NCBI GenBank assembly: GCA_963733035.1
Contig: CAVTBU010000005.1
Span: 1,568,001 to 1,632,000, forward strand
Origin: Pirellulales bacterium
GTDB taxonomy: Bacteria > Planctomycetota > Planctomycetia > Pirellulales > PALSA-1355
Direction: 5' to 3'
Length of the DNA stretch: 64,000 nt
Shown here: positions 57-14,444 of the stretch, in pieces
Numbering within the stretch: position 1 is the first letter of the stretch
How the letters are laid out: each line of letters opens with the position of its first letter
Notes under the pieces: generated by a model
Told to the model about the DNA's origin: nothing
Seen by the model: only the letters and a program-made list of their open reading frames with translations
Database searches by the model: none
Program-made: the position numbers and the translations under genes

Positions 57-1049
57 TCAAGGTTTGCTGGCACGGCTTTGCGGTTCGCTTTGCCCCAGCA
101 GAAGGTCGGCGACGTCCATCGTTTCCCGTTCGGGGAACAGCCGGTTCAGGTACCACAACACACCGCCAAACAGGAACGCGGCCATCAGGATCATGGCGAA
201 ACCGGCGAAATCGTGTGAGAACTTCTGTCCCGCTTCACTCGAGATGTACTGATAACACAGTCCGGTAACAACGATTCGCGCGGTGTTGGCTGCCAGCGCG
301 ACCGGAACCACGCTTAGAAGTAACAGCGCGCGTTCCCACCACGATTTCTTGAAGAACATCAGATAGGCGACTGCCAAGGCAATGATCCCCACCAACATGC
401 GCAAGCCCGAGCAAGCTTGCTCCACGTCGAGCCGATGAGTTCCGAGGTGGATTGTGTATCCTTCACTAATTGCCGGTTGGCCCAGACACTGGAGCGTCCA
501 CACGCTCAGCCTGGTGGCCGCCGAACGAAGCGGCAGGCTTAGCATCTGCTCCATGCGGAAGGGGAGCGGAACCATGAAGTACAGATACAGAGCCGCCGGC
601 AAGCTCCAGCGCGCCAGTCGCCACCCTCCAAAGGTCCACACGACTCCAACGATCCATACTGGTATCGACCACGCGTCAATCGTTGGAATGTACAGAATGG
701 CCGCCGGGATCCGCATGGCGATGCTCAGCAGCACGAGCAACAACCCGGGCCACGCGAACTGAAGGCGGAAGTCCGGAAAGCGATCGCGAGCGTGCCACAA
801 AAAGAAACCCGCCAGCAGCGGCACAAGAAAACCGTGCGAATAGTCGGGCACGGTGTTCCAAGTGTGGATCAGATGGGCTGTCGTTGGCCAGTATGCCCAG
901 AAAAACAAGACCACCAGCGACAGGCCAGCGATCGCGATGGTCGTGCGCGCCTTGCGCGGCGGATTGACCGCTATTTCAGCCGGGGAATCAGGCGAAGGGC
1001 TCGCCTGCGCTCCGACGAGCGGCGACTTTTCGTACACGCTCGAGCCCAT
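57..1049 (-). CDS. Exosortase (EpsH/XrtA family), no fused EpsI domain
   Basis: Multi-TM protein with YSHGFLVPLL, YLYFMVPLP, catalytic Cys in VEQACSGLRML, Arg in ANTARI and His in FSHD. ATG 1049 chosen because it lies 2 nt from the upstream stop. PEP-CTERM substrate genes are adjacent. Confidence 0.93.
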   Translation of the reverse strand: MGSSVYEKSPLVGAQASPSPDSPAEIAVNPPRKARTTIAIAGLSLVVLFFWAYWPTTAHLIHTWNTVPDYSHGFLVPLLAGFFLWHARDRFPDFRLQFAWPGLLLVLLSIAMRIPAAILYIPTIDAWSIPVWIVGVVWTFGGWRLARWSLPAALYLYFMVPLPFRMEQMLSLPLRSAATRLSVWTLQCLGQPAISEGYTIHLGTHRLDVEQACSGLRMLVGIIALAVAYLMFFKKSWWERALLLLSVVPVALAANTARIVVTGLCYQYISSEAGQKFSHDFAGFAMILMAAFLFGGVLWYLNRLFPERETMDVADLLLGQSEPQSRASKP

Positions 1050-1050
1050 G

Positions 1051-1710
1051 CTAGGTGCCGTCTCCAAAGAAACGCACAAACCGCTTATACACGCGATGCG
1101 TCTTTTGCCAGAAATTCGCCCGCGTCATCTCGTCCGTTTCCAGGTAGCTGTCATCGTCGGGGGAGTCGAGCAGGTACTCGCCACAAAATTGCCGTTCGCT
1201 GGGCGATAACGTTTCCAGAAACTCGTTGAGCGAGACATCAACCTGATCATCGTCTGTCGAGTAGTGAGGAGCTCGCTGGCGAGACGCTTTCCCCTCCCGG
1301 ACCCTGCGACGAAGCTCCGAGCGAAAGTGGCGACGGACTTCGTCGCGAGCGATGGCACGCAAGAACGTAATCAGGCGTGCCCCTCTGCCTGGATCGTAGC
1401 GCGTCAAAAGTTCGCCATCGTCTGCCACGAGGGCGTACCATACCCGAGCAGTGATTTCCTCGGCCAGGTTTATATCGCTCGTGCGACCGCTCAAGAGCAC
1501 GCAAACGATTTGAACGAGCTGATGATTGCATTGGGCGTGCAATTCCTCCCACGCGTTGACTTGTCCGGCTACGCACCGCTGAGCAAGATCGCGGTCCGCG
1601 TCGACCAACCGCTTGCGAGCAGCTTCCACTTCGGCCTGCGTTTGCAATGCCTCATCTGCAGGCGGCGCCTCCAACAGTTGACTGCTCGACGGCTTTTGTC
1701 TTCGCTTCAC
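1051..1710 (-). CDS. ECF sigma-70-like RNA polymerase sigma factor
   Basis: Sigma2-like DRDLAQRCVAGQVNAWEEL...AEEITARVW...RYDPGRGARLITFLRAIARD and sigma4-like LETLSPSERQ...TRANFWQKTHR, with an atypical acidic stretch. GTG start is uncertain. Confidence 0.72.
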   Translation of the reverse strand: MKRRQKPSSSQLLEAPPADEALQTQAEVEAARKRLVDADRDLAQRCVAGQVNAWEELHAQCNHQLVQIVCVLLSGRTSDINLAEEITARVWYALVADDGELLTRYDPGRGARLITFLRAIARDEVRRHFRSELRRRVREGKASRQRAPHYSTDDDQVDVSLNEFLETLSPSERQFCGEYLLDSPDDDSYLETDEMTRANFWQKTHRVYKRFVRFFGDGT

Positions 1711-2701
1711 GCTGGTCTTATGGCTTTTTCAAAACCTGCAACGTAACTTAAGCGCCGGAGACAAATACGCGGCCTCCTACTGCGCCCAATTTGCGCGTAC
1801 TCCGTTCCCGTGGGTGACGTTGCACCCATTCCCAAACGATTGGAAAGCGCGTCCAGGCGACTAGTGGCCGTCGAATCCGTCGACGGCGCATACGACATCC
1901 ACGGCTCTCAGCCCGGCTCGGACAACGAGCGCCACAATCTCCGTCCAATCAGCGAATCAACAATTCAATGGTGTGCGGAACGGCAGGATTCTGGACAGTC
2001 CCAGCCCCGGCACGGGCTGGATCGCCGGGGCGGCCGAAGCGCATGAACGACGCGTCGACCGCGAACCGGCTGGTTCAGACAGATTTGATGCGGAACCCGA
2101 TACCCGGGGCGCCTCGCGCCACGAGCCACGACTCGCGAATCAAACTGCGTCAAGAAGCTTGCGTTCGTAGAGGAAACCCGGCCAGAACAGACAACAATCC
2201 GTGGAAATACCAACATTTTCCGGTCCAGTTTTTCGGTCGTTCGGCTACGAACCGACTGCAAATCGAACCGACTTTCAGCGGCAGAGTTCCACACGGTTGT
2301 TGCCCCCAGTTGCTAGCGGGTCTCCTCTATAAGCAACAAGGCGCATTTGGTCGTTGAAAGCGGACACGCTTGTGTCGCAGAGCGTATCAGCCAGAGCCGA
2401 TGATAGATTAGTAAGTCATTCTTGATGCGTCGGTTGCGCTTTCCAAAATTCTCCTAAAATTCTTTTTGGGTTCGTAGGTCTGATCGGCTACCGACGTCAG
2501 CGACCCACCGTCCCCCCCATATTCTTTACTCCATGGCATAGATCAAACGACGCCCAACAATGATCACGGATCGGATCTTCGCAGTCGAGATGACCTGAAC
2601 GCCGAGTGACAGGTTTGACTGAAATGATCGAGAATTGGCTGTAATCTTCAATCTTCGATAGGCAAGGAAGAGCCATCTCAGTCGCGGGGTGACCTTAGTT
2701 A

Positions 2702-2716
2702 TGACACAAAATGTCA
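2702..2716. promoter_or_regulatory. Palindromic box TGACA-N5-TGTCA
   Basis: TGACACAAAATGTCA, upstream of the PEP-CTERM gene at 2877. The same box occurs at 8184, 10654 and 11835. Confidence 0.6.
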
Positions 2717-2773
2717 GCACTTGTCCGCGGCGTCGGTTTTCGCAAAAAAACATCTCCACGACTTTAGAAATAC

Positions 2774-2802
2774 TTGACATTCACCGCTGGCTCGGTTTTA
2801 AT
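2774..2802 (+). promoter_or_regulatory. Sigma70-type promoter
   Basis: TTGACA-N17-TTTAAT, ending 75 nt upstream of ATG 2877. Confidence 0.7.
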
Positions 2803-2876
2803 TTGCTTCATCGCGGTTGTCCGCGTTCAACATTGCCGATCAGCCAAGAACATTCATGCATACGGAGAAACGTCTA

Positions 2877-3257
2877 ATGCGTCGCATCTTGAGCCACTTT
2901 GCGTTTTGTTCTCTGGCGGCGGCAATCGTCTTCTCGGCTGCCACGGCACGAGCTGAAAGTATCTCGTTTGCCGACGGATACGAGGGCAGCGTAAACGCGG
3001 CAGCCGATGAAGCGTTGACCAGCGAATCCGCTGTTGAAGCTTCGACGCTTGTCAGCGACAAATCTCTGGACGCTGAATTCACATTTACCAGCCCTTCATC
3101 GGCGAGCGAAGTTGCCTCGTCGCAGTCAGTGAATCTGACGCCGGTCGGCATTATGGTCGCCACCTCGGCCACGGCCACCGTCCCGGAGCCAGCAACTCTG
3201 GTATTGCTTGGCCTTGGTTTTCTGGGCGTACTGGTTGCCCGTAGGCGAAGTCGCTGA
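2877..3257 (+). CDS. Small Ser/Ala/Thr-rich PEP-CTERM protein (canonical tail)
   Basis: Signal peptide MRRILSHF...ATARA and C-terminus VPEPATLVLLGLGFLGVLVARRRSR. GGAG precedes ATG 2877. Confidence 0.9.
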   Translation: MRRILSHFAFCSLAAAIVFSAATARAESISFADGYEGSVNAAADEALTSESAVEASTLVSDKSLDAEFTFTSPSSASEVASSQSVNLTPVGIMVATSATATVPEPATLVLLGLGFLGVLVARRRSR

Positions 3258-3315
3258 TTCATTTGCTGATCGCAACAAATACGTTGAACCGTGCAAACCA
3301 GTTTGCACTGCAAAT

Positions 3316-3339
3316 AGGACTGCTCGCCAGTCCTTTTTT
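3316..3339 (+). terminator. Intrinsic terminator
   Basis: AGGACTG-ctcgc-CAGTCCT followed by TTTTT, about 60 nt after the stop at 3257. Confidence 0.6.
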
Positions 3340-3584
3340 GCGCGCCCGCCCTTCGAATGCACATACGCCCTGCGGCAACAGTTAATGCTTTTGATTTGAG
3401 CGGCCATTCATCCGACCGACTTGACTCTTGCAGGAACCTCGTCCAGCAGCGATGCTGAAAAACCGTGGGCATCGAGCGTCGCAAACCGTACCGCTCGACT
3501 AGGTCTGACAGGTCGCGGTTTCAAGATCAACCGGTGACGTGTCTTCCCGGTGTGCGGCAGCCGGCGCGGTTGGAGAGTCATGTG

Positions 3585-4694
3585 ATGCGGCAAAGCATGC
3601 TAGTTTTGACAATCTGCTGTATCGCGGCCAACCTATCTCAAGCCAGCGTCGCGGTCGTGACGAACCGCACGGACAGGACCGTGTCGTTTCGCTTGGCTAC
3701 CGAGGACGCGGATACCTCGCGCAATGCCGAGCAAGTGATCGAGCAAGGGGATTGCTTGCCGATCCCGCTGTCGGGCCAGGCACAGTTGTCGATCGTTTCG
3801 GGTGGAAAGCGCAAGCAATACCGCGTGAATCCTACCGCCATGTACTACTTCTATTTGAACAGCGCCGGGGAAATTGACTTCAGTCAGATCGGGTTGCAGG
3901 AGCCGCCTGGTGCCAACGTTGCTCCCATCGTCGCTGCTCGGGTAGCTGGCGCACCATTGACTCCCAGGAAATCGGGATCGGTCGTAATCCCGGTCAAGAT
4001 CCTGTATGACGATGCCGAGGTGTTGACTCGCAAAGCGTGGGAAGCTCGCATGCGGAGACGATTTGAAGAAGTCTCGCGCATTTTCCGGAAGCACTGTTTC
4101 GTTGAATTTCAAATCGTCGCGGTTGACAGCTGGCAGCGGCCAACCGCTGTGCAGGCACTGTTACCTACCATGGAGGAGTTTGAGAAGGCCGTTGATCCGG
4201 CGCCTGCGCAGGTGGCAATCGGATTCCTGGGACAGCCAATCAAAAAGAGGCCTGAAGATGGTCACCTCGGTGGCACGCGGGGACCGCTGAGCACGCACGT
4301 GTTAGTTCGTGAGTGGGTCAACGAAAACACGGAGCGGGAATGCTTGGAACTCCTGGTGCACGAACTGGGCCACTTCCTCGGTGCCGTTCATAGCCCCGAA
4401 GTCAATTCGGTCATGCGGCCAAATCTCGGGGACCGCTATGCGCGATCTCCATATTTTCGGATCGTTTTCGACCCGCTAAACACATTGGCCATGTGCCTGG
4501 TCAGTCAAGAACTGGCTGCCAATCGAACGCTTCGATTCGCGCAGCTAAGCCCTTGGACCAAGTTGGAATTGAAGGCGATCTACTACAACCTGGATCGCGC
4601 GAATCCCAAAGATCCAGCCGCAGGCAGCTATTTGCGCGCCTTGGGGGATATCTCTCCCCGACGAACCGGTCCGGACCCGATCCTGGGAGAATAG
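3585..4694 (+). CDS. Secreted zinc metallopeptidase (metzincin)
   Basis: HELGHFLGAVH (HExxHxxGxxH) plus Met-turn NSVM. Signal peptide starts at ATG 3585, preceded by GGAG. Confidence 0.85.
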   Translation: MRQSMLVLTICCIAANLSQASVAVVTNRTDRTVSFRLATEDADTSRNAEQVIEQGDCLPIPLSGQAQLSIVSGGKRKQYRVNPTAMYYFYLNSAGEIDFSQIGLQEPPGANVAPIVAARVAGAPLTPRKSGSVVIPVKILYDDAEVLTRKAWEARMRRRFEEVSRIFRKHCFVEFQIVAVDSWQRPTAVQALLPTMEEFEKAVDPAPAQVAIGFLGQPIKKRPEDGHLGGTRGPLSTHVLVREWVNENTERECLELLVHELGHFLGAVHSPEVNSVMRPNLGDRYARSPYFRIVFDPLNTLAMCLVSQELAANRTLRFAQLSPWTKLELKAIYYNLDRANPKDPAAGSYLRALGDISPRRTGPDPILGE

Positions 4695-4883
4695 AGATAC
4701 CGGCAATCGCGCATCGGTCGAGCATGGAAAATCATCGGGAGTGACCCGGCTAAGATGCGGGCGATCACGCTTGGGTTTTCAGCAGGCTGCCAACCGGTCA
4801 CCGGACCGCCCCAGTCGCGCGTGTTCCGACTCACAGTATGCTGCGCCACGGGGAGCGGAATGCACGCTCGTACCCGATCGCAA

Positions 4884-5780
4884 TTAGGCCCGCGGTCCGG
4901 ACACGGCATCCAAAATGGCTTGGCGCGTATCGCTTGACCAGCGTCCCTGCGCAACTTCCCGGCGTCGACGTCCCACGGTCAATCCGGCCGCACCTCCGGC
5001 CAGTAATGACCACACAACAAGGCTTGCCGGCTCGGGCACGGCGGCGCCCACCTGTGCGTCGGCAACAATGACCCCGTAGGCTTGGTCCTGATTGAGCGGG
5101 TTTGTCAATGCCCAGACCGTCGCGTTCGGCGATGCACTACCCAGGTTGCTTAAGAAAAACTGCGCCTCCGCCAGCATGTTCGCGGCAGCGCCCGTGGGCG
5201 TGTTTGTAACTCGCAAATTGCCCGTGCTGAAGCTGGAAGAAGCACCGTCGTATACTAACTTCCAGAGCGCGATCTGGTAGGCACCCGCCCACTCTCGACG
5301 GTCTTGAGTCGTCAGATTTGGATCGCTGAGGATCATCTGCGGATCCGGGTAAAAATTTGAAAAGAGCGCAGTAATTTCTCCCGCGATTGTCGCGTCGATT
5401 TGAGCTCCCGGATTGGGGGCACCGACTAAACCAGCGACCGTCCAACTCTGCAAGTGCCCCCAGTACACATCTTGCACGACTTCGATGCACGAAGTGTAAA
5501 AGTTGTCGACCGGGCTGCCGTTTACCGCAGCGTTGGTCCAATAAAGTAGCCCGCCCTGATCCGAGCCCCAGGTCGTGCTTGTAGGGCTCCCGTTGTTGTA
5601 GAGCCGAAAGTTTACTCCGGAGACGCCCAGGATCGAACCGTTCTGCGTCAGGTATCCCTGGACTTGATCATTTAATTGCAGGTCCAACGCCGCCATCAGC
5701 TGATGCCCGTTGCCGAGCACTACGGCGACAGCCAGGGAGGCTAGAATCGTGCGAGCAAGACTCTGTAACTTCATGGACAT
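4884..5780 (-). CDS. PEP-CTERM protein (Trp-type tail) with candidate Cys-Gln thioester domain
   Basis: Signal peptide, FYTSCIE and YQIALW motifs, tail VPEPASLVVWSLLAGGAAGLTVGRRRR plus a 24-aa extension. Confidence 0.9.
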   Translation of the reverse strand: MSMKLQSLARTILASLAVAVVLGNGHQLMAALDLQLNDQVQGYLTQNGSILGVSGVNFRLYNNGSPTSTTWGSDQGGLLYWTNAAVNGSPVDNFYTSCIEVVQDVYWGHLQSWTVAGLVGAPNPGAQIDATIAGEITALFSNFYPDPQMILSDPNLTTQDRREWAGAYQIALWKLVYDGASSSFSTGNLRVTNTPTGAAANMLAEAQFFLSNLGSASPNATVWALTNPLNQDQAYGVIVADAQVGAAVPEPASLVVWSLLAGGAAGLTVGRRRREVAQGRWSSDTRQAILDAVSGPRA

Positions 5781-5849
5781 AACAATCTCTATCTCAGGCT
5801 GTGATTCTTGATGCGGGGAAGATCGTGTTATCGCTTTTATCTACCCTCC

Positions 5850-5879
5850 TATAGACCGCCACACGATTTTCCTGACAAA
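5850..5879 (-). promoter_or_regulatory. ECF-type promoter motif, copy 1
   Basis: Coding strand reads TTTGTCAGG-N13-GGTCTATA. Confidence 0.7.
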
Positions 5880-6074
5880 AAAACCTCCCAATTTACCAAT
5901 TCGGCGCGGCGAGGGATTCTTAAATCAGGACGTCGGACACGGCTTGTCCGCTCCTGCGGCCAGAATTGACCATGAGAAAGCTGAAGGTCGCGAGTGACTG
6001 GAATCGGCGCTGCTCAGATTTGCGAGCTCGGCGAGAAAGGCAGATGGGAGCTTGAGCCCGTTTTCGTGGTGAGT

Positions 6075-6765
6075 TCAGCCCTGAGACTTCTTGCGGCGCC
6101 AACCGATGCCCATTGCAAGGGAACTTAGCAAAGTCCACACGATCAGGCTGGTGGGCTCAGGAACCGCAGCTGTTCCCGACATTTCGACCCGCAGCGCCGA
6201 TGGATTGGCGTTGCCGCTATTGTCACCAGGAGCGGAGCCACCGTTGTGAATTACGAATTCCAAGGTGTTCAATCCTGACACGAAGCCACTGGTAATCGTG
6301 AACGGGGCGAATCCCGAACTGAATTGCGTAAACGAGGTGGCGACAGTACCGATCGAAACACCGTTTATTTTGATGTCCACGCCATCGTTGTCGCTTGACC
6401 AGGCACCACTGATACTAGCCGTCGACGGATTGAGGCCGGTCAAATCGAACGTCGTTTCATAGACGTAATTTCCTGGAGGGGAGTTCAGGTCCGGGTCGTT
6501 GTTTGGGCCAATCCAACGGGACAACGAATTATCGCCCAAGTAGGGCGGGATTGGAAAGTTGCTCGCGGACGTTATGACTCGAATGTCGGTGGATCCACTG
6601 GGCACCGACGTCAAAGTGTAATGTGGGTCCCCAATCGTGCCGTCGGGCAGGACGGCTCCAGAAGCATCGACGCCTGTGTTGAACAAGGTCGTAATGATGG
6701 CTCCCTGGGCGTGTCCGACTTCGAAGGCCAACACGATTCCAAGCATGCCGACAGATCCGTTTCAT
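6075..6765 (-). CDS. PEP-CTERM protein (Trp-type tail), beta-rich domain paralogous to 7048-7800
   Basis: Tail VPEPTSLIVWTLLSSLAMGIGWRRKK. The open frame starts at ATG 6746. ATG 6765 (MKRI, good RBS) joins it with a 1-nt indel and completes the signal peptide. Confidence 0.88.
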
Positions 6766-6875
6766 TTTCCAGTCCCTTGACGAGTCGAGGCGGTTCCGCA
6801 GGCGAAAGCTAAAGTCGTCGCGACGCGGGTTCCACGAAATGGGTCCATAGGTCCATATCCATACTTTCAGTTTCT

Positions 6876-6905
6876 ATTAGGTTCGCCAAGCATGGTATCC
6901 TGACA
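6876..6905 (-). promoter_or_regulatory. ECF-type promoter motif, copy 2
   Basis: Coding strand reads TGTCAGG-N15-AACCTAAT. This is the most divergent copy. Confidence 0.55.
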
Positions 6906-6991
6906 CAAACCTCGAAAAAATAGTTATTCACCAGGGAATGCCATGTAGATTCATTAAGCGTCGAGTACGATTTCAAGAGCCAAATGACAGC

Positions 6992-7140
6992 AGCCGGAGC
7001 AGACCAGAGTGCGCCCCGGCTCAGTGGATTCGCTCGGCGACCAATTCCTAAGCAGCTCGTTTGCGTCGTCGCCAGCAACCAGCGCCGCCCAGGACTAACC
7101 CGAGGAGGGACCAAACAACGAGGCTGCCGGGTTCGGGAAC
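6992..7140. repeat. Direct repeat copy A (PEP-CTERM tail plus 3' hairpin)
   Basis: Ungapped match to 8291-8439, about 81% identical by manual count, including 56 non-coding nt. Confidence 0.85.
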
Positions 7141-7800
7141 CGAAGCTGATAGGAACTCTGCTCGAAGACCCGTCGGATTGCCGCTTCCGCCAGATGCGTT
7201 TGTCACTCGGAACTCTAAGGTATTTGCCCCAGCTACCAAGCCAACTGAAGAATTCAGTTCAAAATTCGTCCAAGTTCCAAAACCCAACGATGACGGCAAA
7301 ACTAGATTCCCATTCAAGAATAGCTGCCCCGAGTTGTCAGTTGCCCAATGCCCGTCAACCACCAAGTAGGAACCTGGCGCCGTGAACGTAAGCGAGTAGG
7401 TGTAAAGCCCCGCAGGAGCCGTCGACGGCCATATTCCACTGCCTGAATTTGCAAACTGGGTCGGAGTAATCCAGCTGGAACCACTTGACCCGGGAGCGTC
7501 ATTGGCAAGCCAATGACCATAAGCTGGGTTCGTCGTTGAGACACCCGAATTAGGCGGGGCTGCCGTTGTTGTTAGCGTGTAGTGCGTATCGAAAGCAACT
7601 GGAGCTAAGACTTTGTCGGCGGAGTCGGTGCCCGTGTTATAGAGGCCAATGCTCGGCAATGAAATTGCGGCCGATGCGTTCCCTGGCAGGCAGGTTGAAA
7701 CAGCGCCAGCGATCGCTAGAAATGCCAAGCCCCGATTTCCGAACAGCAAAAAGTCTTTATAACACATAGCCCACGTTTCCTTGTAGGTTGTTCGATTCAT
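7048..7800 (-). CDS. PEP-CTERM protein (Trp-type tail)
   Basis: Tail VPEPGSLVVWSLLGLVLGGAGCWRRRKR. Shares NTG-D-HY-WI-W-DN-NTLEF-LR-E pattern with 6075-6765. Start may be ATG 7767. Confidence 0.9.
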   Translation of the reverse strand: MNRTTYKETWAMCYKDFLLFGNRGLAFLAIAGAVSTCLPGNASAAISLPSIGLYNTGTDSADKVLAPVAFDTHYTLTTTAAPPNSGVSTTNPAYGHWLANDAPGSSGSSWITPTQFANSGSGIWPSTAPAGLYTYSLTFTAPGSYLVVDGHWATDNSGQLFLNGNLVLPSSLGFGTWTNFELNSSVGLVAGANTLEFRVTNASGGSGNPTGLRAEFLSASVPEPGSLVVWSLLGLVLGGAGCWRRRKRAA

Positions 7801-7982
7801 GTTGCTCTATGATATCGCTAAAACCCTGCTTCATTATCGGGGCGATTCGTAGGCCACTCTTTTGCCGTCGTAGCCACACCAACCGGCCCCACCGATAGTC
7901 ATGATCTCGCGTAGCGACCAGCACACTGCCGCTTATCTATCGCAGCTTTGTGGCGGCCTTAAACCGGCCCAACGCTACAAGC

Positions 7983-8014
7983 TTTAGGCCGGCAAACCCG
8001 GGAACCTGACAAAA
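7983..8014 (-). promoter_or_regulatory. ECF-type promoter motif, copy 3
   Basis: Coding strand reads TTTTGTCAGG-N14-GGCCTAAA. Confidence 0.7.
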
Positions 8015-8183
8015 GATTGGCCTTTCTGCGATCATATCCATCAGAGATTGGCAAGGCGTCCGAGCAGCGACTTGGCGAAACGACTGCCCGGCGAGGAAAA
8101 AGTGCACTAGGACGCGAAAACCGGGCGAAAAGCGATTCGGCAGTAGCGACCAGTCCGCTCGGCAATCCATTGTTCCAAAGGTC

Positions 8184-8198
8184 TGACAGTTTCTGTCA
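8184..8198. promoter_or_regulatory. Palindromic box TGACA-N5-TGTCA
   Basis: TGACAGTTTCTGTCA inside the longer inverted repeat GGTCTGACAG-TTT-CTGTCAGGCC. Intergenic. Confidence 0.5.
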
Positions 8199-8282
8199 GG
8201 CCGAACGCAACCGATTGCTCTTAGAGTTGTGTTCGATCGGAGTACCATTTTACTGCAAGCGCTCGCTTTGCCAGAAGACGGA

Positions 8283-8320
8283 AACAGAAAAGCCGGAGCA
8301 GAACAAAGTCTGCCCCGGCT
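8283..8320 (-). terminator. Intrinsic terminator of 8347-8931
   Basis: Minus strand reads AGCCGGGGCAGA-ctttgt-TCTGCTCCGGCT followed by TTTCTGTTT. Confidence 0.65.
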
Positions 8321-8439
8321 CATTGGATTCGCTCCGCGGCCAATTCCTAAACCGCTCGTTTGCGTCGTCGCCAGAAGCCGGCGCTGCCAATTGCCAAGCC
8401 GAGCATGGACCACACGACCAAGCTTGCCGGTTCGGGAAC
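8291..8439. repeat. Direct repeat copy B (PEP-CTERM tail plus 3' hairpin)
   Basis: Matches 6992-7140. Confidence 0.85.
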
Positions 8440-8931
8440 AATCGACGCGTTTAGTGCTTCGGCCGTTGGAGTTGGCGATGCCCCGTTAGTGAAAGTCCAG
8501 TTATGTCCGCTCCAACTGGCGAGTGCGGAATCGACCAAGGTGCTACCCCGGTACGCGAACAGGTTGACCGAAAGGGGAGTGCTACTGGATCCGATGAACC
8601 AAAGATTGAAAGTGATATTCGTGGTTAGAGGTCCCTGTGCGATGCCCAGCGTACGATTGAGACCAACGCCAGCGGTGGGCTGGTCCGTCCAGCCAGCGAC
8701 TGAAATACTTCGAAATACCTGCGCTTCAAGCGGCCCGCCGGAGACGATTTGGGCGGCTATCATGTCGAAAGTTCCAACTCCACTCTCATTGATACCCTGG
8801 CCCCAACTGTTTCCCTCTATTGGGTCGCCAATTGCCGTGATCGAAGCTGAAGATTGCGAGATACCGACGGTGAGGATTAGCGCCACCGTTGTAAATCGCA
8901 CAATTCGCACGAAAAGATCGCTCGTTCGCAT
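8347..8931 (-). CDS. PEP-CTERM protein (Trp-type tail)
   Basis: Signal peptide from ATG 8931 (MRTSDLF...SSA) and tail VPEPASLVVWSMLGLAIGSAGFWRRRKR. Confidence 0.9.
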   Translation of the reverse strand: MRTSDLFVRIVRFTTVALILTVGISQSSASITAIGDPIEGNSWGQGINESGVGTFDMIAAQIVSGGPLEAQVFRSISVAGWTDQPTAGVGLNRTLGIAQGPLTTNITFNLWFIGSSSTPLSVNLFAYRGSTLVDSALASWSGHNWTFTNGASPTPTAEALNASIVPEPASLVVWSMLGLAIGSAGFWRRRKRAV

Positions 8932-8987
8932 TACATCGCTCCGGCGGTGTGTCTCTTGAATGTGCTGGAAGACTTTTTCTAACTGTA

Positions 8988-9018
8988 TATAGGCCGACGG
9001 CGGACGATCACTGACAAA
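8988..9018 (-). promoter_or_regulatory. ECF-type promoter motif, copy 4
   Basis: Coding strand reads TTTGTCAGT-N14-GGCCTATA. Confidence 0.7.
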
Positions 9019-9540
9019 GAAAATCGCAACGGCTAGATCGAGGATTCGCCCCGGAAGAAGGCACCGTTGACACGAATTGACATGGTCCTGTGACGCTACC
9101 GCACACGCTCGTCCTGTTGACCTAACGTTGAGAACGGGCAAAAATCGTAACGGTTGAAGTCGTAGCATCACGAGCGACCGCGTGATCGACTCGCTGGTCG
9201 AATTACTCGCCGATGCGTGGCAGGCTCCAGCAAATTCGCAGCGGCAACGGTCCGGAGTCTATCGCCGTCTTGATTCGTCGCTGGCTCGGCCGAGGTGGAC
9301 GTTGAGCGCTGCACATCATGCTGCTGGGAAGGCCGCTGTCCAGGGCCGTCTCGATAGCTGCCCGGAATCTTGCGCCCGAGTTTTGCGCCGTCGGTCGACG
9401 GCAATTCCTGGCATCATTCGTGCCAGTCACCGCCTCAGCCTTGGCCCCCCCTTGACGGCGGCAATATACCGATGCTGCGCTGACCCCTGGCTGCCACCTT
9501 ATGACCTTCACCAGGAGCCGATCCGGCCTTACCGGATGCC

Positions 9541-10407
9541 TTAGTTGAAATAGCCGATTCCACAGACCAAGGGCCCCTGCTTACGCGTGCCCCTCGTGCA
9601 AAATCCAAGTGCTTCATCAACACGTGCTACTTCGGCTTCGTACCGGTTTTGTTGCTGCGACGCGCAGAGGTAACCCAGCAAACTCAGGCTTCCGAAACTG
9701 AGCAGCATAATCGAAGACGGCTCCGGAACGATTTGAGCCAGTCCGGTGAGCACAGCGATATCCCCGCCGCCAGAAAGCGAGAATCCTAGGGTCAGTGACA
9801 TGTTCATCCAAGCACCCACGGGACCCGCCTGGGGGCCTGCCGTGTAGGAGCCGTACGTGTAGAAAGCACCAGGGGACGCGGCGCCATGTGCGTTGGCCGG
9901 GCCAACGTCGACACCCATGTTTGTCAACGGAAGTGACAAGTCAGCAATTTGAATGTTTGGGCCAAGAGTCGGCGTAATGGAAACGCCGTTTCCGTTCACA
10001 TCGTTCAAGGCACCCGCGATCGAGGCATTCACGCTGTTCGCCGTTGGTGGAAATGCGATCGGCGTTGAGAAAAAGAATCCAAAAGCGCTGGGCGCTCCCA
10101 AATCTTGCACCGAGATTCCGTAGCTGATTTGTGGATCAGGATCGAGCTCGCCACTAATGCTTGCCGAGAATTCGCTATTCGAAAGATCGACACCAGAAAA
10201 CTGATTTGTATTCGGGTCGAACGTTCCCGCGCCCCAGTGGCCGCTGCCGGGATCGAATGCCAGCGGAATCACAAAGTCCTGCCCGTCGACCGACAGAGTT
10301 GCACTGGGTGTCACTTGAACTGGCACCGCTTGGCTGGCGCTGGACCCCAGAACAAGCGCAAAGATGAAAGCCATGCAAACGACGAGAAGTCGATTTCGTA
10401 GTGACAT
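9541..10407 (-). CDS. PEP-CTERM protein (canonical tail; probable 1-nt indel near the 3' end)
   Basis: Signal peptide from ATG 10407 and tail VPEPSSIMLLSFGSLSLLGY. Removing one base at 9669-9670 gives the expected basic end SARRSNKTGTKPK, with stop at 9627. Confidence 0.88.
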   Translation of the reverse strand: MSLRNRLLVVCMAFIFALVLGSSASQAVPVQVTPSATLSVDGQDFVIPLAFDPGSGHWGAGTFDPNTNQFSGVDLSNSEFSASISGELDPDPQISYGISVQDLGAPSAFGFFFSTPIAFPPTANSVNASIAGALNDVNGNGVSITPTLGPNIQIADLSLPLTNMGVDVGPANAHGAASPGAFYTYGSYTAGPQAGPVGAWMNMSLTLGFSLSGGGDIAVLTGLAQIVPEPSSIMLLSFGSLSLLGYLCASQQQNRYEAEVARVDEALGFCTRGTRKQGPLVCGIGYFN

Positions 10408-10594
10408 CACGAGCTGCTCTCCATTGCACCTTGTCTCGCCGCGACGAGCCAAGCTGGTCGGTTAATCTCAGCGTAAAGGACAAGAACACGGCCTACAACT
10501 GCGACAACTGGTTCAGCGTTTTCCTTGCGGCTTATATGCGGCAGCAAGCTATCCGCACAGACGCGAAAAACGAAAAACGTTCGCAACCAGCGGT

Positions 10595-10668
10595 AGCCTA
10601 GCAATCCAGTCGACAACCGTCAATCAAAATCAAAAGAAATCGCGAACTTATGATGACAGATGCCGTCA
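10595..10668 (-). promoter_or_regulatory. Sigma70-type promoter with upstream palindromic box
   Basis: TTGACG-N17-TAGGCT at 10623-10595. TGACA-N5-CGTCA at 10654-10668 lies 30 nt upstream of the -35 element. Confidence 0.75.
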
Positions 10669-10945
10669 TAGTAGCGTCGCAATTCGGTACTCAACTCGCG
10701 TGGCCGGCATCCCCGTGCCGCGCGGTGACATGGTCCATTGAACTTGGTGCTGGATATTCAGACTTGGCAGTCTACCTTCCGCCTATCACATTTAAGCTGC
10801 CGGTATGCGATCCTTGATAGCCGTGCAGCAAGAGGCTCAGAAAGCGATGCGATTGACGGGACAACAGACAGCGAATCGAAATAAGTCGGCCAGGGCAAAA
10901 CCTGGTGTTTGATCGAGACCGATCGCAGTTGTCTAGCCGGCCGTT

Positions 10946-11710
10946 CTACGCGATGCGCTTTCTTCGTCGGAATACCAGCAGGGCGAGCATGCCGAATAAC
11001 GCCAGCGCGATGCTGGTGGGCTCCGGGACGATAATTCCGAGCGATCCAGTGCCGGCGACATTGCCGGTACCAGCAGCGTGAAAGCCGGTGAGGTAGCCGC
11101 CGGCCGAGGTGACGCCCGTCAGGTTGGCGCTGGACATCGCGATCGTGATCGGCTGCGAGGGATCCCATTCCAAGTTGAACGGCAAATTCTGCGCGAACAG
11201 ATCGGTGGCGAAGCCGGCCACGGAGATCGCGATCTGGTTGCCCGTGTAGAAGAACTGCATGGTGTCGATGTTGAGTGCCAGACCCCAGCCAGGGGTCTGG
11301 TTTTCGGTCAGCAGATCGACGCCAAAAGCACCACCGTTGCCGGCGCTGTTGACGATGCTGCCGCCCGCCGCCGGAATGTTGAGCACGTCTTTGATGTAGA
11401 TGTCCGCAAAGACGTCGGTCGTTTCGGTTCCGACCAGCGTGCCGTCGAGGTAAAAGTTCATCGACGTCAGGGCATCGGACTGGGCCGGGTCGCCGATGCC
11501 CAGCGTATTGTGCGTCCCGGCATCGAAAATACTCGTACCGTCGTAATCGAGATTGAGACCGGTGAACTGGACCTCAAGCGTGCCGGCGCTGGCAGGACGG
11601 AAAGACAACAGAATCAGCGCGCATGCAGCGAAGCTCAAGCCAAGCTTCGCAAAACAACAATTCTTTCGCAGCACAGCAAGCCGCAAAGAGACATGATTCT
11701 TGGCATGCAT
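10946..11710 (-). CDS. PEP-CTERM protein (canonical tail)
   Basis: Tail VPEPTSIALALFGMLALLVFRRRKR, signal peptide ending RPASA, GGAG before ATG 11710. Confidence 0.9.
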   Translation of the reverse strand: MHAKNHVSLRLAVLRKNCCFAKLGLSFAACALILLSFRPASAGTLEVQFTGLNLDYDGTSIFDAGTHNTLGIGDPAQSDALTSMNFYLDGTLVGTETTDVFADIYIKDVLNIPAAGGSIVNSAGNGGAFGVDLLTENQTPGWGLALNIDTMQFFYTGNQIAISVAGFATDLFAQNLPFNLEWDPSQPITIAMSSANLTGVTSAGGYLTGFHAAGTGNVAGTGSLGIIVPEPTSIALALFGMLALLVFRRRKRIA

Positions 11711-11775
11711 GAAGCTACTCCAAAGTGGCTCAGCAAAGTGTTCGCGCGGACGCAGCGATGTTGACAACGAGCAGT

Positions 11776-11849
11776 AGCCTAAGTTCCCCCAGAGTGATTG
11801 TCAACCAAATTCAACAGAAATCGCGAACAAAGTGTGACAGGCATCGTCA
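11776..11849 (-). promoter_or_regulatory. Sigma70-type promoter with upstream palindromic box
   Basis: TTGACA-N17-TAGGCT at 11804-11776. TGACA-N5-CGTCA at 11835-11849 again lies exactly 30 nt upstream of the -35 element. Confidence 0.75.
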
Positions 11850-12159
11850 TAGTTCAGTGGCGTTACTGATTTGACGCTTGCGCGGCTCGATCCATCCAAT
11901 TCCTTTTGGACCTCAGGCCAGGCATTGCTTTCACTCCTCTCGCCGGCTTTTATCGGCCCGGAAGAAAGCCAAATCGCCACACTGCGATTTCGTTTCGAAC
12001 TACTCAAAAACCGCAAAATCACGGCATGTCATCAGTCGGTAATTTCCTTTCTGCACGCGAAGACGCGCACCGGAGGTTAACAAAACGAAAAGCTTTGTGC
12101 ACGAAGCCTTTATGTGAAAGGATATCGGCATCAGTCAGGTCTCCCCGAATTGCAGATTT

Positions 12160-12190
12160 TTTGTCAGGCGGGCCTCATCGGGGGCCTATA
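12160..12190 (+). promoter_or_regulatory. ECF-type promoter motif, copy 5
   Basis: TTTGTCAGG-N14-GGCCTATA, ending about 50 nt before TTG 12241. Confidence 0.72.
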
Positions 12191-12240
12191 GAGGGTTAAG
12201 AAGCATTGTATGGAGTCCAACATCCGGCTGGGAGCCGACT

Positions 12241-12804
12241 TTGAAACCGCATATTTTCGCTCTCTGGGCGTTTGCGATCGTGGGCAGTACTTGCTGCCGA
12301 GCGGCGATTGTGCCGCTTTCGGGCGGCCCGGTGCGGATAGCGCTCGTTGACGTGACGTCCATCTCAGGCTCAGAGAATGCTGGGTCGGCGCTTGCCAATG
12401 CGACGCTCGTTGATATTTTTTATGCCGAAGCGTCACAAGGCGAGGCGCAACTCACCGCGGGCATGCAGGTGTGGGTGTACAATAATTTCGGTCAGCAGGT
12501 TGGCACCGGCATCATCGTTCCCCGCCCAGACACACATGACGAGCGGAACCAGTTGGGTATCTTCGGCAAGTCCCCCTTGCCCAGCAGTTACTTCGAAAGT
12601 TTCCTGAGTTTGCTGACCTCGGCCGCTCCCGCGACAGGCGGTTCTGCCCCGCAGAGCCCGTTGATTGCTGCCGGTCCGTATGCGATTTCGGCCACGCCAC
12701 TCGCTGCTACCGTGCCAGAACCGGGCAGCTTGATGATCTGGTCTTCTCTGATCGCGAGCATCGGCGTGTTGAGCGCCCTAGTCCGCCGCCGACTTCGCCG
12801 CTGA
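12241..12804 (+). CDS. PEP-CTERM protein (Trp-type tail)
   Basis: Signal peptide from a TTG start preceded by GGGAG. Tail VPEPGSLMIWSSLIASIGVLSALVRRRLRR. Confidence 0.88.
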   Translation: MKPHIFALWAFAIVGSTCCRAAIVPLSGGPVRIALVDVTSISGSENAGSALANATLVDIFYAEASQGEAQLTAGMQVWVYNNFGQQVGTGIIVPRPDTHDERNQLGIFGKSPLPSSYFESFLSLLTSAAPATGGSAPQSPLIAAGPYAISATPLAATVPEPGSLMIWSSLIASIGVLSALVRRRLRR

Positions 12805-12865
12805 AATCAGCATCGGCTTGCCGTGAACTGAAAGAAGCCAGCCGTTTGGCGGTTTCGCGCTCCGT

Positions 12866-13428
12866 GGCCGTCGCTTCGCTGGTGGTCTTGGCCTGCCGGA
12901 TGCCGAGGATCTGGGCGATGACACGGCTCACTTCGGCCGGCGGGTAGAACTGTCCCTTGCTCTTGCCACTTTCGGTGGCGAAGTGCCACATCAGGTACTC
13001 GTAAGCGTCGCCCAGAATATCGTCGCCTTCGGCGCGATTTTTGGAGAAGTCGAGGACCTTGTTCTCGAAGATAGCGATCAGGTTGGTGAGCCGATCGACC
13101 ATCTCCTTCCCGCTACCCAGTTTCGTGGCATCGTTAAAGTCCGGCACGTTGGACAGCTGATTGGCCGCGGCCAGAGGGGCGATGATCTTCTTGTTGATCT
13201 GGTCGCCAATGTCGCTTCTTGCCCTTGAGCGCCACCATGTCCTTGAAACTGGCCCCTTTCGGGATCGTGATCGGGGCATACGGCTGGCCTGCGTACTTAT
13301 CGCTGATGTACTTCACGAACAACAGCACCAGCAAATAGTCCTTGTACTGGCTGGCGTCCATGCCCCCGCGCAGCTCATCGCACGAAGCCCAAAGATGAAG
13401 AGTAAAGCTCGGATTTCTTCAGGGCCAT
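12866..13428 (-). pseudogene. hsdM: Type I restriction-modification HsdM N-terminal fragment
   Basis: MALKKSELYSS/LWASCDELRGGMDASQYKDY...GDAYEYLM.HFATESGKSKGQFY.PAEVS, read across two frameshifts. Homology stops just before the DPxCGSG SAM-binding motif. Left end is approximate. Confidence 0.88.
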
Positions 13429-14165: not shown

Positions 14166-14444
14166 ATGAACCAATCCGCCAATGAAACGCAGATTTCGCT
14201 AAATGAAACGCAGGCGTCGCTCCTCGACGTCAAAGCCCTTGCGAAACTGCTTCACTGTTCACCCAGGCACATACGTCGGCTGGTCGAGTTGGGTCGGATG
14301 CCGAAGCCAGTTCGCCTCGGTACTCTTGTTCGGTGGCCAAGGCCGGCGATTGAAGCCTGGATCGGCGAAGGATGCGAGCCGGTCCGAAAAGCCAATCCGA
14401 AAAGCACCAAGGTATCGGACGTCAATAAATCGACTGCGACATGA
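14166..14444 (+). CDS. AlpA/excisionase-family HTH protein
   Basis: LLDVKALAKLLHCSPRHIRRLVELGRMPKPVRLGTLVRWPRPAIEAWI, with an AGGAG RBS. Confidence 0.85.
   Translation: MNQSANETQISLNETQASLLDVKALAKLLHCSPRHIRRLVELGRMPKPVRLGTLVRWPRPAIEAWIGEGCEPVRKANPKSTKVSDVNKSTAT

Follow-up and report, generated by a model that had tools for sequence, protein, structure and literature searches.

A candidate ECF-type promoter accompanies tryptophan-type PEP-CTERM tails and an exosortase-linked sigma factor in Pirellulales

Introduction

Near one end of a 64-kb stretch of Pirellulales DNA (GenBank assembly GCA_963733035.1, contig CAVTBU010000005.1, positions 1,568,001 to 1,632,000; the whole stretch is called the window here), an exosortase gene and the gene for a putative extracytoplasmic function (ECF) sigma factor lie beside a group of genes whose products end in PEP-CTERM sorting tails, and the question that this locus raises is whether that sigma factor turns on the genes for the proteins that the exosortase sorts. 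The region studied spans positions 57-12804, and the genome, G000 in our numbering, comprises 6.6 Mb in 10 contigs. Eight PEP-CTERM-like open reading frames (ORFs) lie in this region, where an initial annotation had placed them. That annotation assigned one promoter type to the genes whose tails carry a tryptophan and another to the genes with canonical, Trp-less tails, and proposed that the Trp tail, its promoter and possibly the exosortase form one dedicated regulon.

Exosortases dedicated to cognate tail variants are an established concept, and to our knowledge the regulation of PEP-CTERM genes is understood only for the proteobacterial sigma-54/PrsR circuit. Sections of Haft et al. (2006, PMC1569441) describe PrsK/PrsR/PrsT with a sigma-54 "PEP-CTERM box" in Proteobacteria, and leave other regulators and DNA motifs outside that group still to be found. 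Here, we report that the core observation, a promoter-like motif before the Trp-tail genes, is real and extends beyond the window, so that the initial proposal is partly confirmed. We put at about 0.7 the probability of the reading we favor, in which an ECF-type sigma factor made together with one exosortase machine turns on the genes for that machine's probable cargo.

Results

A promoter-like motif precedes the Trp-tail genes

We call a tail W-type when it fits PEP-x-S-[LIVMA]2-[LIVM]-W, which places the Trp six residues after PEP (+6), and we name genes of the window by their start positions. Five genes with VPEPxSL(V/I/M)(V/I)W tails were seen, as the initial annotation had said:

4884..5780, minus strand: W-type PEP-CTERM gene, tail VPEPASLVVWSLL
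6075..6746, minus strand: W-type PEP-CTERM gene, distant paralog of gene 7800 (30% identity, E 1e-9)
7048..7800, minus strand: W-type PEP-CTERM gene, VPEPxSL(V/I/M)(V/I)W tail
8347..8931, minus strand: W-type PEP-CTERM gene, terminator-like hairpin downstream at 8321-8290
12241..12804, plus strand: W-type PEP-CTERM gene with a TTG start, VPEPxSL(V/I/M)(V/I)W tail

Each was said to be preceded by TGTCAG[GT]-N14-GGCCTA[TA]A. The element does stand before all five, but the pattern in that form is exact at three only, the other two being N13 and N15 variants:

5850..5877, minus strand: promoter-like motif TGTCAGG-N13-GGTCTATA, 69 nt before start 5780, score 14/15
6876..6905, minus strand: promoter-like motif TGTCAGG-N15-AACCTAAT, 129 nt before start 6746, score 13/15
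7983..8011, minus strand: promoter-like motif TGTCAGG-N14-GGCCTAAA, 182 nt before start 7800, score 15/15
8988..9016, minus strand: promoter-like motif TGTCAGT-N14-GGCCTATA, 56 nt before start 8931, score 15/15
12162..12190, plus strand: promoter-like motif TGTCAGG-N14-GGCCTATA, 50 nt before the TTG start 12241, score 15/15

All five window sites, like the motif sites of G000 in general, are sense-oriented, lie 50-182 nt before the starts, and have a T-rich 5' flank and unrelated spacers. The exact form TGTCAGK-N14-GGCCTAWA has three matches in the 64 kb (8011-7983 and 9016-8988 on the minus strand, 12162-12190 on the plus strand) against a chance expectation of 0.10, a count reached in 0 of 100 shuffles.

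The start of gene 6746 had been placed at 6765, which is out of frame with ORF 6075-6746. The ATG at 6765 (minus strand) encodes MKRICRH, resembling the charged start of a signal peptide; it lies 19 nt upstream of the W-type ORF, which starts MLGIVLAFEVGHAQG at 6746. There may be a frameshift in the signal peptide, leaving it disrupted, or an assembly error.

The association holds across the genome

A tail screen of G000 returned about 120 PEP-CTERM-like ORFs, 10 of them W-type and 110 of other types. When the motif was scored as TGTCAGK-N13-15-GGMCTAWW over 700 nt around the 5' edge of each ORF, with a threshold of 13/15, it was present at 10/10 W genes versus 2/110 non-W genes (Fisher p = 5.7e-13), with an antisense control of 3/120; the link between tail and motif that had been suggested from the window is thus near-exclusive in the genome as a whole. 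The two non-W genes that pass are C4:5120-6145, with a perfect site, and another with a 13/15 site at -344. A loose regular expression gives 16 matches in the genome, not above shuffles (10-24); eight of these stand before W genes and one before a non-W PEP-CTERM gene, and the two W genes outside these matches have sites with one or two mismatches. An 83-kb stretch around the sigma operon (C5:1.498-1.581 Mb) holds eight of the 10 W genes.

One more of the 16 matches, a perfect motif TGTCAGG-N14-GGCCTAAA, lies outside the window at C5:1529262-1529234 (minus strand). Only a 57-aa ORF, no convincing gene, is found within 350 nt downstream, and the site may be an orphan promoter, or belong to a small gene or a remnant.

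The cargo domains had been described as mostly unrelated, and once the tails are removed this holds for all W genes except the pair 6746/7800. The upstream regions have the motif alone in common. Tail-coding DNA is 70-85% identical among W genes, and only the pair 7800/8931 is similar beyond the stop codon. Because the cargo domains and the promoter spacers are unrelated, recent duplication is not the explanation of the association. The cargo genes are unrelated and carry promoter and tail at their two ends, a pairing for which selection is a better explanation than recent copying.

In genes 7800 and 8931 the tail plus about 56 nt of 3' flank are alike (81% over 149 nt; 6990-7060 and 8290-8400, minus strand), a stretch that includes the hairpin at 8321-8290; this points to the exchange of a tail-plus-terminator module between them.

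Trp-type tails are weak-scoring PEP-CTERM variants

The tripartite tail of PEP motif, hydrophobic helix and Arg cluster is present in 10/10 W genes. When tails are searched in isolation, 17/18 match TIGR02595 at E of at most 10 (one, for instance, with 17.5 bits against a cut-off of 16), which places them in the PEP-CTERM sorting domain (TIGR02595/PF07589). When whole proteins are searched, 0/5 of the window's W genes match PEP-CTERM models at E of at most 0.01, and canonical tails reach 20.8-27.1 bits. They do not belong to PEPxxWA-CTERM (NF035944; 7 bits against 35), which 5/18 tails match at E of at most 10, the best at 0.005; in the XrtV/PEPxxWA-CTERM system the Trp stands at +3 after PEP, whereas here it stands at +6.

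The canonical tails have no promoter class of their own

The three Trp-less genes of the region are the following:

2877..3257, plus strand: small PEP-CTERM gene with a canonical Trp-less tail (PF07589 34.5 bits, TIGR02595 27.1)
9541..10407, minus strand: PEP-CTERM-like gene, Trp-less tail without an Arg cluster (PF07589 18.5 bits, cut-off 20.7), sigma-70-like match at 10623-10595
10946..11710, minus strand: canonical PEP-CTERM gene, upstream region homologous to that of gene 10407

These were held to carry TTGAC[AG]-N17-T[AT]xxxT together with a TGACA-N5-YGTCA box. Both elements are where they were reported: the first at 2774-2802 (plus strand; TTGACA-N17-TTTAAT before gene 2877), 10623-10595 and 11804-11776 (minus strand), the second at 2702-2716, 10654-10668 and 11835-11849. 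The box, however, is not exclusive to Trp-less genes. A further copy lies at 8184-8198, upstream of W-type gene 7800, and the copy at 11835-11849 sits in an upstream region common to W-type gene 12241. The form TTGACR-N17-TWNNNT occurs six times in the window versus 1.08 expected, and the DNA ahead of gene 10407 is homologous to that ahead of gene 11710 (78% over 54 nt). Among the 110 non-W PEP-CTERM genes genome-wide, the sigma-70-like match is found at 8, the box at 5 and both at 2; the two elements are rare, and therefore they do not make a promoter class. We reject the "canonical promoter class" on these grounds (the homologous upstream regions, the box near W genes and the 2/110 count) and attribute the likeness to local duplication.

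A terminator-like hairpin stands after gene 2877, at 3316-3334. In gene 10407 the tail (VPEPSSIMLLSFGSLSLLGYLCASQQQNRYEAE..., window 9541-9680, minus strand) has no Arg cluster and runs on for about 40 further residues, which gives it the look of a PEP-CTERM end that has degenerated or been frameshifted.

A divergent sigma factor heads an exosortase operon

The candidate regulator and its partner stand at the edge of the cluster:

57..1079, minus strand: exosortase (EpsH family), "clade A" (PF09721 214.5 bits, cut-off 25.7; TIGR02602 152, cut-off 105.55)
1051..1710, minus strand: divergent ECF-type sigma factor of 219 aa, recognised by fold search, joined to the exosortase gene
1792..1818, minus strand: short GGGAAC-containing element, some 85-110 nt ahead of the start of the sigma gene, common to the same-genus genome G090

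With both family models above their cut-offs, the first product is a member of the exosortase (EpsH) family. It falls below the cut-off of every named Xrt subtype (XrtD 200 vs 400) and is not a member of XrtA (TIGR03109, 161.2 vs 208). Its start is likely the ATG at 1049, which leaves 1 nt after the TAG stop of the sigma gene (1053-1051); a TTG start at 1079 would give a 29-nt overlap. In either case the two genes are coupled, as had been noted, and a gap of 1.1 kb separates the start of the sigma gene from gene 2877.

By sequence, the sigma factor stays below threshold: Sigma70_r2 (PF04542) gives 18.3 bits against 24 and TIGR02937 16.9 against 42.9, and a profile search of the PDB finds weak matches only, to ECF sigmas at E 0.028 and 0.43. 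An AlphaFold2 model built with 30 homologs has a predicted local distance difference test (pLDDT) score of 83 overall and above 90 over residues 30-140, and the 44 best-ranked Foldseek matches to it in the PDB are sigma factors, nearly all ECF-type (SigC, sigmaE, AlgU, SigK, SigW). Region 2 of the model matches SigC and sigmaE with target-normalised template modelling (TM) scores of 0.77-0.79 and root-mean-square deviations of 2.3-3.0, so that an ECF region 2 (sigma2) is recognised by structure. Helices 152-216 are predicted at pLDDT 50-87, with no Pfam region 4 match; full-length alignments to sigmaE, AlgU, SigK and SigW have probabilities of 0.94-1.0 with low TM scores, domain orientation being different. 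At 219 aa, the protein can accommodate sigma2 and sigma4 but no further region. In a large protein collection, 48 homologs were found, mostly unnamed or hypothetical, and 47 of the 48 have no precomputed Pfam domain. On the strength of this model, we take the product of 1051-1710 to be a very divergent ECF-type sigma factor.

Downstream of the exosortase, on the minus strand and beyond the window, the operon continues with a Wzc-like tyrosine autokinase, a 1481-aa PrsT-like tetratricopeptide repeat (TPR) protein (263 bits), an EpsI-like protein, a priming glycosylphosphotransferase, an XrtA-system polysaccharide deacetylase (375 against a cut-off of 276), stp1/stp2-like glycosyltransferases, an O-ligase-like protein and an FkbM methyltransferase; the stp1/stp2-like and PrsT-like proteins are below their cut-offs. 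The exosortase is one of two in the genome, the second belonging to a different polysaccharide locus, where its neighbours are Wza-like, Wzc-like and EpsI-like genes.

Most ECF sigmas autoregulate, a common but not universal habit. In G000 the operon is not preceded by the motif, and G090 offers no more than a weak site (13/15) some 580 nt upstream. The element at 1792-1818 is the only significant blastn match between the sigma-upstream regions of G000 and G090 (26/29, E 1e-5). It reads GTCACCCA(C/G)GGGAACGGAGT..ACGCGCA, with a classical ECF-like GGAAC, and may be the operon's own promoter region, one at which another sigma factor acts.

Motif, sigma factor and exosortase clade tend to occur together

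We sampled 150 genomes of the order and took a sigma ortholog to be a match with E below 1e-25. Orthologs are present in 19 of the 150, spread over many families. Exosortase matches are bimodal, and clade A (at least 200 bits, 40-64% identity) occurs in 44 genomes, among them 17 of the 19 that carry the sigma versus 27 of the 131 others. The sigma gene adjoins a clade-A exosortase in 7 of 10 fetched loci. The proposed tie between this sigma and one exosortase clade is borne out by these counts.

The same can be said for the motif, for which exact TGTCAGG was found before 16/33 W genes in sigma-bearing genomes (antisense 1/33) versus 2/37 in sigma-lacking ones (antisense 2/37), at p = 5.9e-5 with related genomes counted without phylogenetic correction. 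Non-W PEP-CTERM genes in the same sigma loci have TGTCAGG in 0/5 cases, and motif-bearing W genes often stand directly beside the sigma gene. In a reverse test, TGTCAGG-N14-GGCNTA was sought in five sigma genomes and gave 10 matches against 0 in the control: seven before genes with PE[PA] tails (W at +6 in six, F in one), one before the ortholog of the window's metalloprotease and two unclear.

A scan of GTDB representatives yielded 59 sigma loci, all in metagenome-assembled genomes, and the best 42 (L153-L194; tblastn E at most 8e-32, L190 3e-30) were analysed; they are labelled Pirellulales, Thermoguttaceae, Planctomycetia and similar, and some probably overlap the G-numbered genomes. Every carrier seen is an uncultured organism. 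In 15/42 loci the sigma gene has an exosortase within 6 kb. At a score of at least 13, the motif accompanies 15/20 genes with an aromatic residue at +6 versus 3/17 others (antisense 0/37; p = 8e-4), figures obtained with a uniform score and a window reaching the real starts, and uncorrected for relatedness. A cruder first pass, with exact TGTCAGG and a short upstream window, had given 7/20 versus 4/17 (p = 0.5).

The Trp tail itself is tied to the system in part. By a strict DNA pattern for VPEPx[ST]xxxW, which both misses and over-calls tails, at least three matches occur in 18/44 clade-A genomes versus 6/106 others, but such tails are also widespread where sigma and motif are both absent. 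The motif stands before 0/13 W genes examined in G004, a genome without a sigma match.

Some motif-driven or sigma-adjacent genes have PEA for PEP: L040:3444-3471 (G050), L143 (G068) and L170. Trp is at +6 in two of the three (G068 and L170, as in VPEASTFAMW), and PEAGTWATW of G050 has Trp at +4 and +7; in these tails conservation seems stronger at the aromatic position than at the third signature residue. In L155, L156, L164, L188 and L191 (Thermoguttaceae/Planctomycetia) the spacer is conserved as TGTCAGGAATCG-SCC-TTCGGCGGCCTATA and holds a small inverted repeat, unlike the variable spacers of the G000 sites; perhaps it serves as a second binding site or reflects some structural constraint.

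Neighbouring genes

One further gene stands within the cluster:

3465..4694, plus strand: secreted zinc metalloprotease-like protein with a HELGH motif (Peptidase_M10 24.9 bits, cut-off 24)

The promoter-like motif was sought upstream of this gene and of gene 2877 and is absent at both. Each has a counterpart in G090, gene 2877 as an ortholog in the G090 locus and the metalloprotease as an ortholog with 46% identity that has TGTCAGG-N14-GGCCTACG upstream.

Beyond the cluster, ORF 12707-13279 (minus strand) resembles, by eye, a type I restriction-modification methylase fragment, and ORF 14166-14444 (plus strand), again by eye, an AlpA/excisionase-type DNA-binding protein. GC content falls to 0.52 at 16-18 kb, near these ORFs. 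Given the two resemblances and the dip, a mobile-element border may lie directly after the cluster.

Discussion

Overall, we believe that transcription of the Trp-tail genes by the sigma factor encoded beside the exosortase is the most attractive account of this locus. In the mechanism we propose, TGTCAG[GT]-N14(+/-1)-GG[CA]CTAWW would be an ECF-type promoter, with a -35 element TGTCAGG and a -10 core CCTA/CTAT 16 nt on, most likely read by the divergent ECF-like sigma of 1051-1710. Since the sigma gene stands first in the operon, which continues through the exosortase gene to the Wzc-like kinase, the giant PrsT-like TPR protein and the other products listed above, the sigma factor would be produced along with one of the two exosortase/polysaccharide machines that the genome encodes. 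The predicted regulon consists mainly of monocistronic genes for secreted proteins whose PEP-CTERM tails are aromatic at +6, with Trp there in nearly every case, and the exosortase encoded with the sigma factor probably has these proteins as its cargo. On this model the cargo would be expressed only when the sorting machinery is. What the data show is the motif with its orientation and position, its near-exclusive link to Trp tails in G000, its link to the sigma ortholog across genomes, the ECF fold and the content of the operon; the promoter function of the motif, its reading by this sigma and the processing of Trp tails by the clade-A rather than the second exosortase are inferred.

This arrangement has partial counterparts among known systems. 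As in XrtD/VPLPA-CTERM, XrtC/VPDSG-CTERM and XrtV/PEPxxWA-CTERM, there are here two exosortases and two flavours of tail, and genes with the variant tail cluster around one exosortase; unlike those named pairs, the exosortase reaches no subtype cut-off and its pairing with the tail is statistical only. The likeness to PrsK/PrsR, as far as the sections consulted describe that circuit, lies in a common cis element before mostly monocistronic PEP-CTERM genes with long leaders, and in a phylogenetic profile of that element that matches a regulator encoded with the exosortase/polysaccharide locus, where a PrsT-like TPR protein is found here too. The same sections give a -24/-12 promoter with an enhancer, and a kinase with a sigma-54 activator, where we see a -35/-10 ECF-type candidate promoter and a sigma factor as the candidate regulator; and only one tail subclass, about 10/120 genes, is covered here. 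No protein in the genome scores above the PrsR (TIGR02915) cut-off, the best reaching 396 against 502.6 bits.

The candidate promoter also resembles that of ECF41 sigma factors, which is given as TGTCACA-n16-CGTC in the sections seen of Wecke et al. (2012, PMC3426412). The two have in common a TGTCA-type -35 heptamer, a 16-nt spacer to a -10 tetramer (here TGTCAGG-n16-CCTA) and a small regulon of neighbouring genes. On the same partial account, ECF41 differs in its -10 tetramer (CGTC versus CCTA/CTAT here), in a fused C-terminal regulatory domain and in having the promoter before its own operon, and the sigma factor described here has neither of the latter two; at 219 aa, with no domain beyond the sigma regions, it does not have the SnoaL-like C-terminal extension of that group.

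At the same time, a number of our observations weigh against this account. The statement that the pairing is without exception does not survive. C4:5043-6145 (plus strand), with a 15/15 motif, has a PEP-CTERM tail VPEPGTVVLAAFGF... without an aromatic residue at +6; the motif stands before the G090 metalloprotease; and it accompanies the 3/17 non-aromatic tails of the named loci (L156, L180 and L181). Conversely, W tails without the motif are found elsewhere, and they are abundant in genomes without a sigma ortholog (35 pattern matches in G004, 14 in G008 and 8 in G023), and six genomes without a clade-A match have at least three, all by a pattern that, as said, errs both ways. In the other 150 genomes the exact G000 pattern does not rise above background, with 7 matches versus 12 for the reversed control; relatives keep the -35 block, and the -10 block has drifted. 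Even exact TGTCAGG is sparse in some sigma genomes (G135 2/9, G148 1/3, G009 0/2, G073 0/1), and the cross-genome p value carries no correction for phylogeny. No exosortase lies within 6 kb at 27/42 named sigma loci. No motif site of at least 11/15 is found within about 1.2 kb upstream of the sigma-exosortase operon, and no conserved anti-sigma candidate stands beside the sigma gene, the recurring neighbours being the exosortase, the Wzc-like gene and the TPR gene only. It is because of the missing autoregulation and anti-sigma, the drifted -10 and the exceptions in both directions that our confidence is held near the figure given above. The dedicated regulon of the initial annotation accordingly stands in one part, in that the motif set nearly equals the Trp-tail set and co-occurs with the sigma, and falls in another, in that the tail rule is broken both ways; nothing in these data points to the switch that was also proposed. 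C4:5043-6145, which in G000 is the only clean departure from the tail rule, lies 5 kb from a W-type gene, C4:10237-11013.

Several of these observations would be expected if the motif were a real promoter read by another sigma factor, with the adjacent one acting on a different target, such as the polysaccharide operon. Many ECF-like sigmas are encoded in this genome, and weaker homologs of this one are numerous in every genome sampled; the operon's own upstream region and the 27 loci without a nearby exosortase fit as well, and TGTCAGG precedes a W gene in two sigma-lacking genomes (G082 and G048). Nonetheless, we consider this unlikely, for the motif follows the sigma orthologs (16/33 versus 2/37, and 0/13 in G004) and its W genes are so often the direct neighbours of the sigma gene. 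As for G082, its genus has an ortholog in four other genomes, and the sigma of G082 may be unassembled.

Still less likely is it that the two blocks are the operator of a DNA-binding regulator rather than -35 and -10 elements, transcription then starting from another, unrecognised promoter. ECF promoters mostly have CGT-type -10 elements, among which the block GGCCTATA is unusual, and the spacer conserved in Thermoguttaceae-type loci (AATCGSCCTTCGGCGG) hints at an extra constraint. An operator, however, would not readily account for the strictly sense orientation (antisense 3/120, 1/33 and 0/37), for a spacing fixed at 14+/-1 between blocks that are neither palindromic nor direct repeats, for a geometry equal to that of ECF41 promoters, or for the occurrence of TTGACR-N17-TWNNNT at 0/10 W genes. 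Finally, the idea that the pairing is a functionless, historical by-product of a copied or end-shuffled ancestral gene is very improbable and already largely refuted, for although the W tails are clearly homologous modules, with the 3' flank of 7800/8931 and the distant paralogs 6746/7800 as further signs of copying, promoter and tail lie at opposite ends of cargo unrelated but for one pair, spacers and flanks are not conserved, and the pairing recurs in several families of the order.

Turning back to transcription by the adjacent sigma factor, a more ambitious version of it can be imagined. In flagellar systems FliA (sigma-28), a sigma factor encoded with machinery genes, turns on the late substrate genes. 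Here too the sigma is encoded with the machinery; the difference is that no FlgM-like anti-sigma or export checkpoint is evident. Consider, then, a machinery-first hierarchy in which the co-translated sigma would be the sole activator of the cognate Trp cargo, gated by the state of the sorting/polysaccharide machine itself, with the aromatic residue at +6 discriminating between the two exosortases. Gating by the machine is proposed because no conventional anti-sigma is present. We regard the hierarchy in this complete form as rather doubtful; if true, it would be the exosortase analogue of the flagellar FliA checkpoint.

The initial annotation knew of no description of such a system, and none was found in the literature, which was seen in part. 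Within that part, work on PEP-CTERM proteins or exosortases and sigma factors contains no link from an ECF sigma to either. Among the papers listed by broad full-text searching, Haft et al. (2006) and an RpoN floc-formation paper alone have a sigma-factor term together with PEP-CTERM or exosortase; the sections seen of PMC7293339 draw no link between an ECF sigma and an exosortase; and the main text of the ECF reclassification paper (PMC7826278), as far as it was seen, names neither exosortase, PEP-CTERM nor TGTCA, its supplements being a place where the group may be listed. As far as that literature goes, the link between sigma, motif and tail subclass points to an undescribed regulation of exosortase cargo.

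Regardless of how the sigma factor is itself controlled, the locus provides a concrete candidate for PEP-CTERM regulation in Pirellulales and Thermoguttaceae. It puts a name to a sigma family that Pfam and NCBIfam thresholds miss, together with its likely promoter and a predicted regulon of secreted proteins, and it gives annotators a way of recognising PEP-CTERM proteins that score weakly. In this context, the subclass of tails with an aromatic residue at +6 could explain how substrates are divided between two exosortases in one cell.

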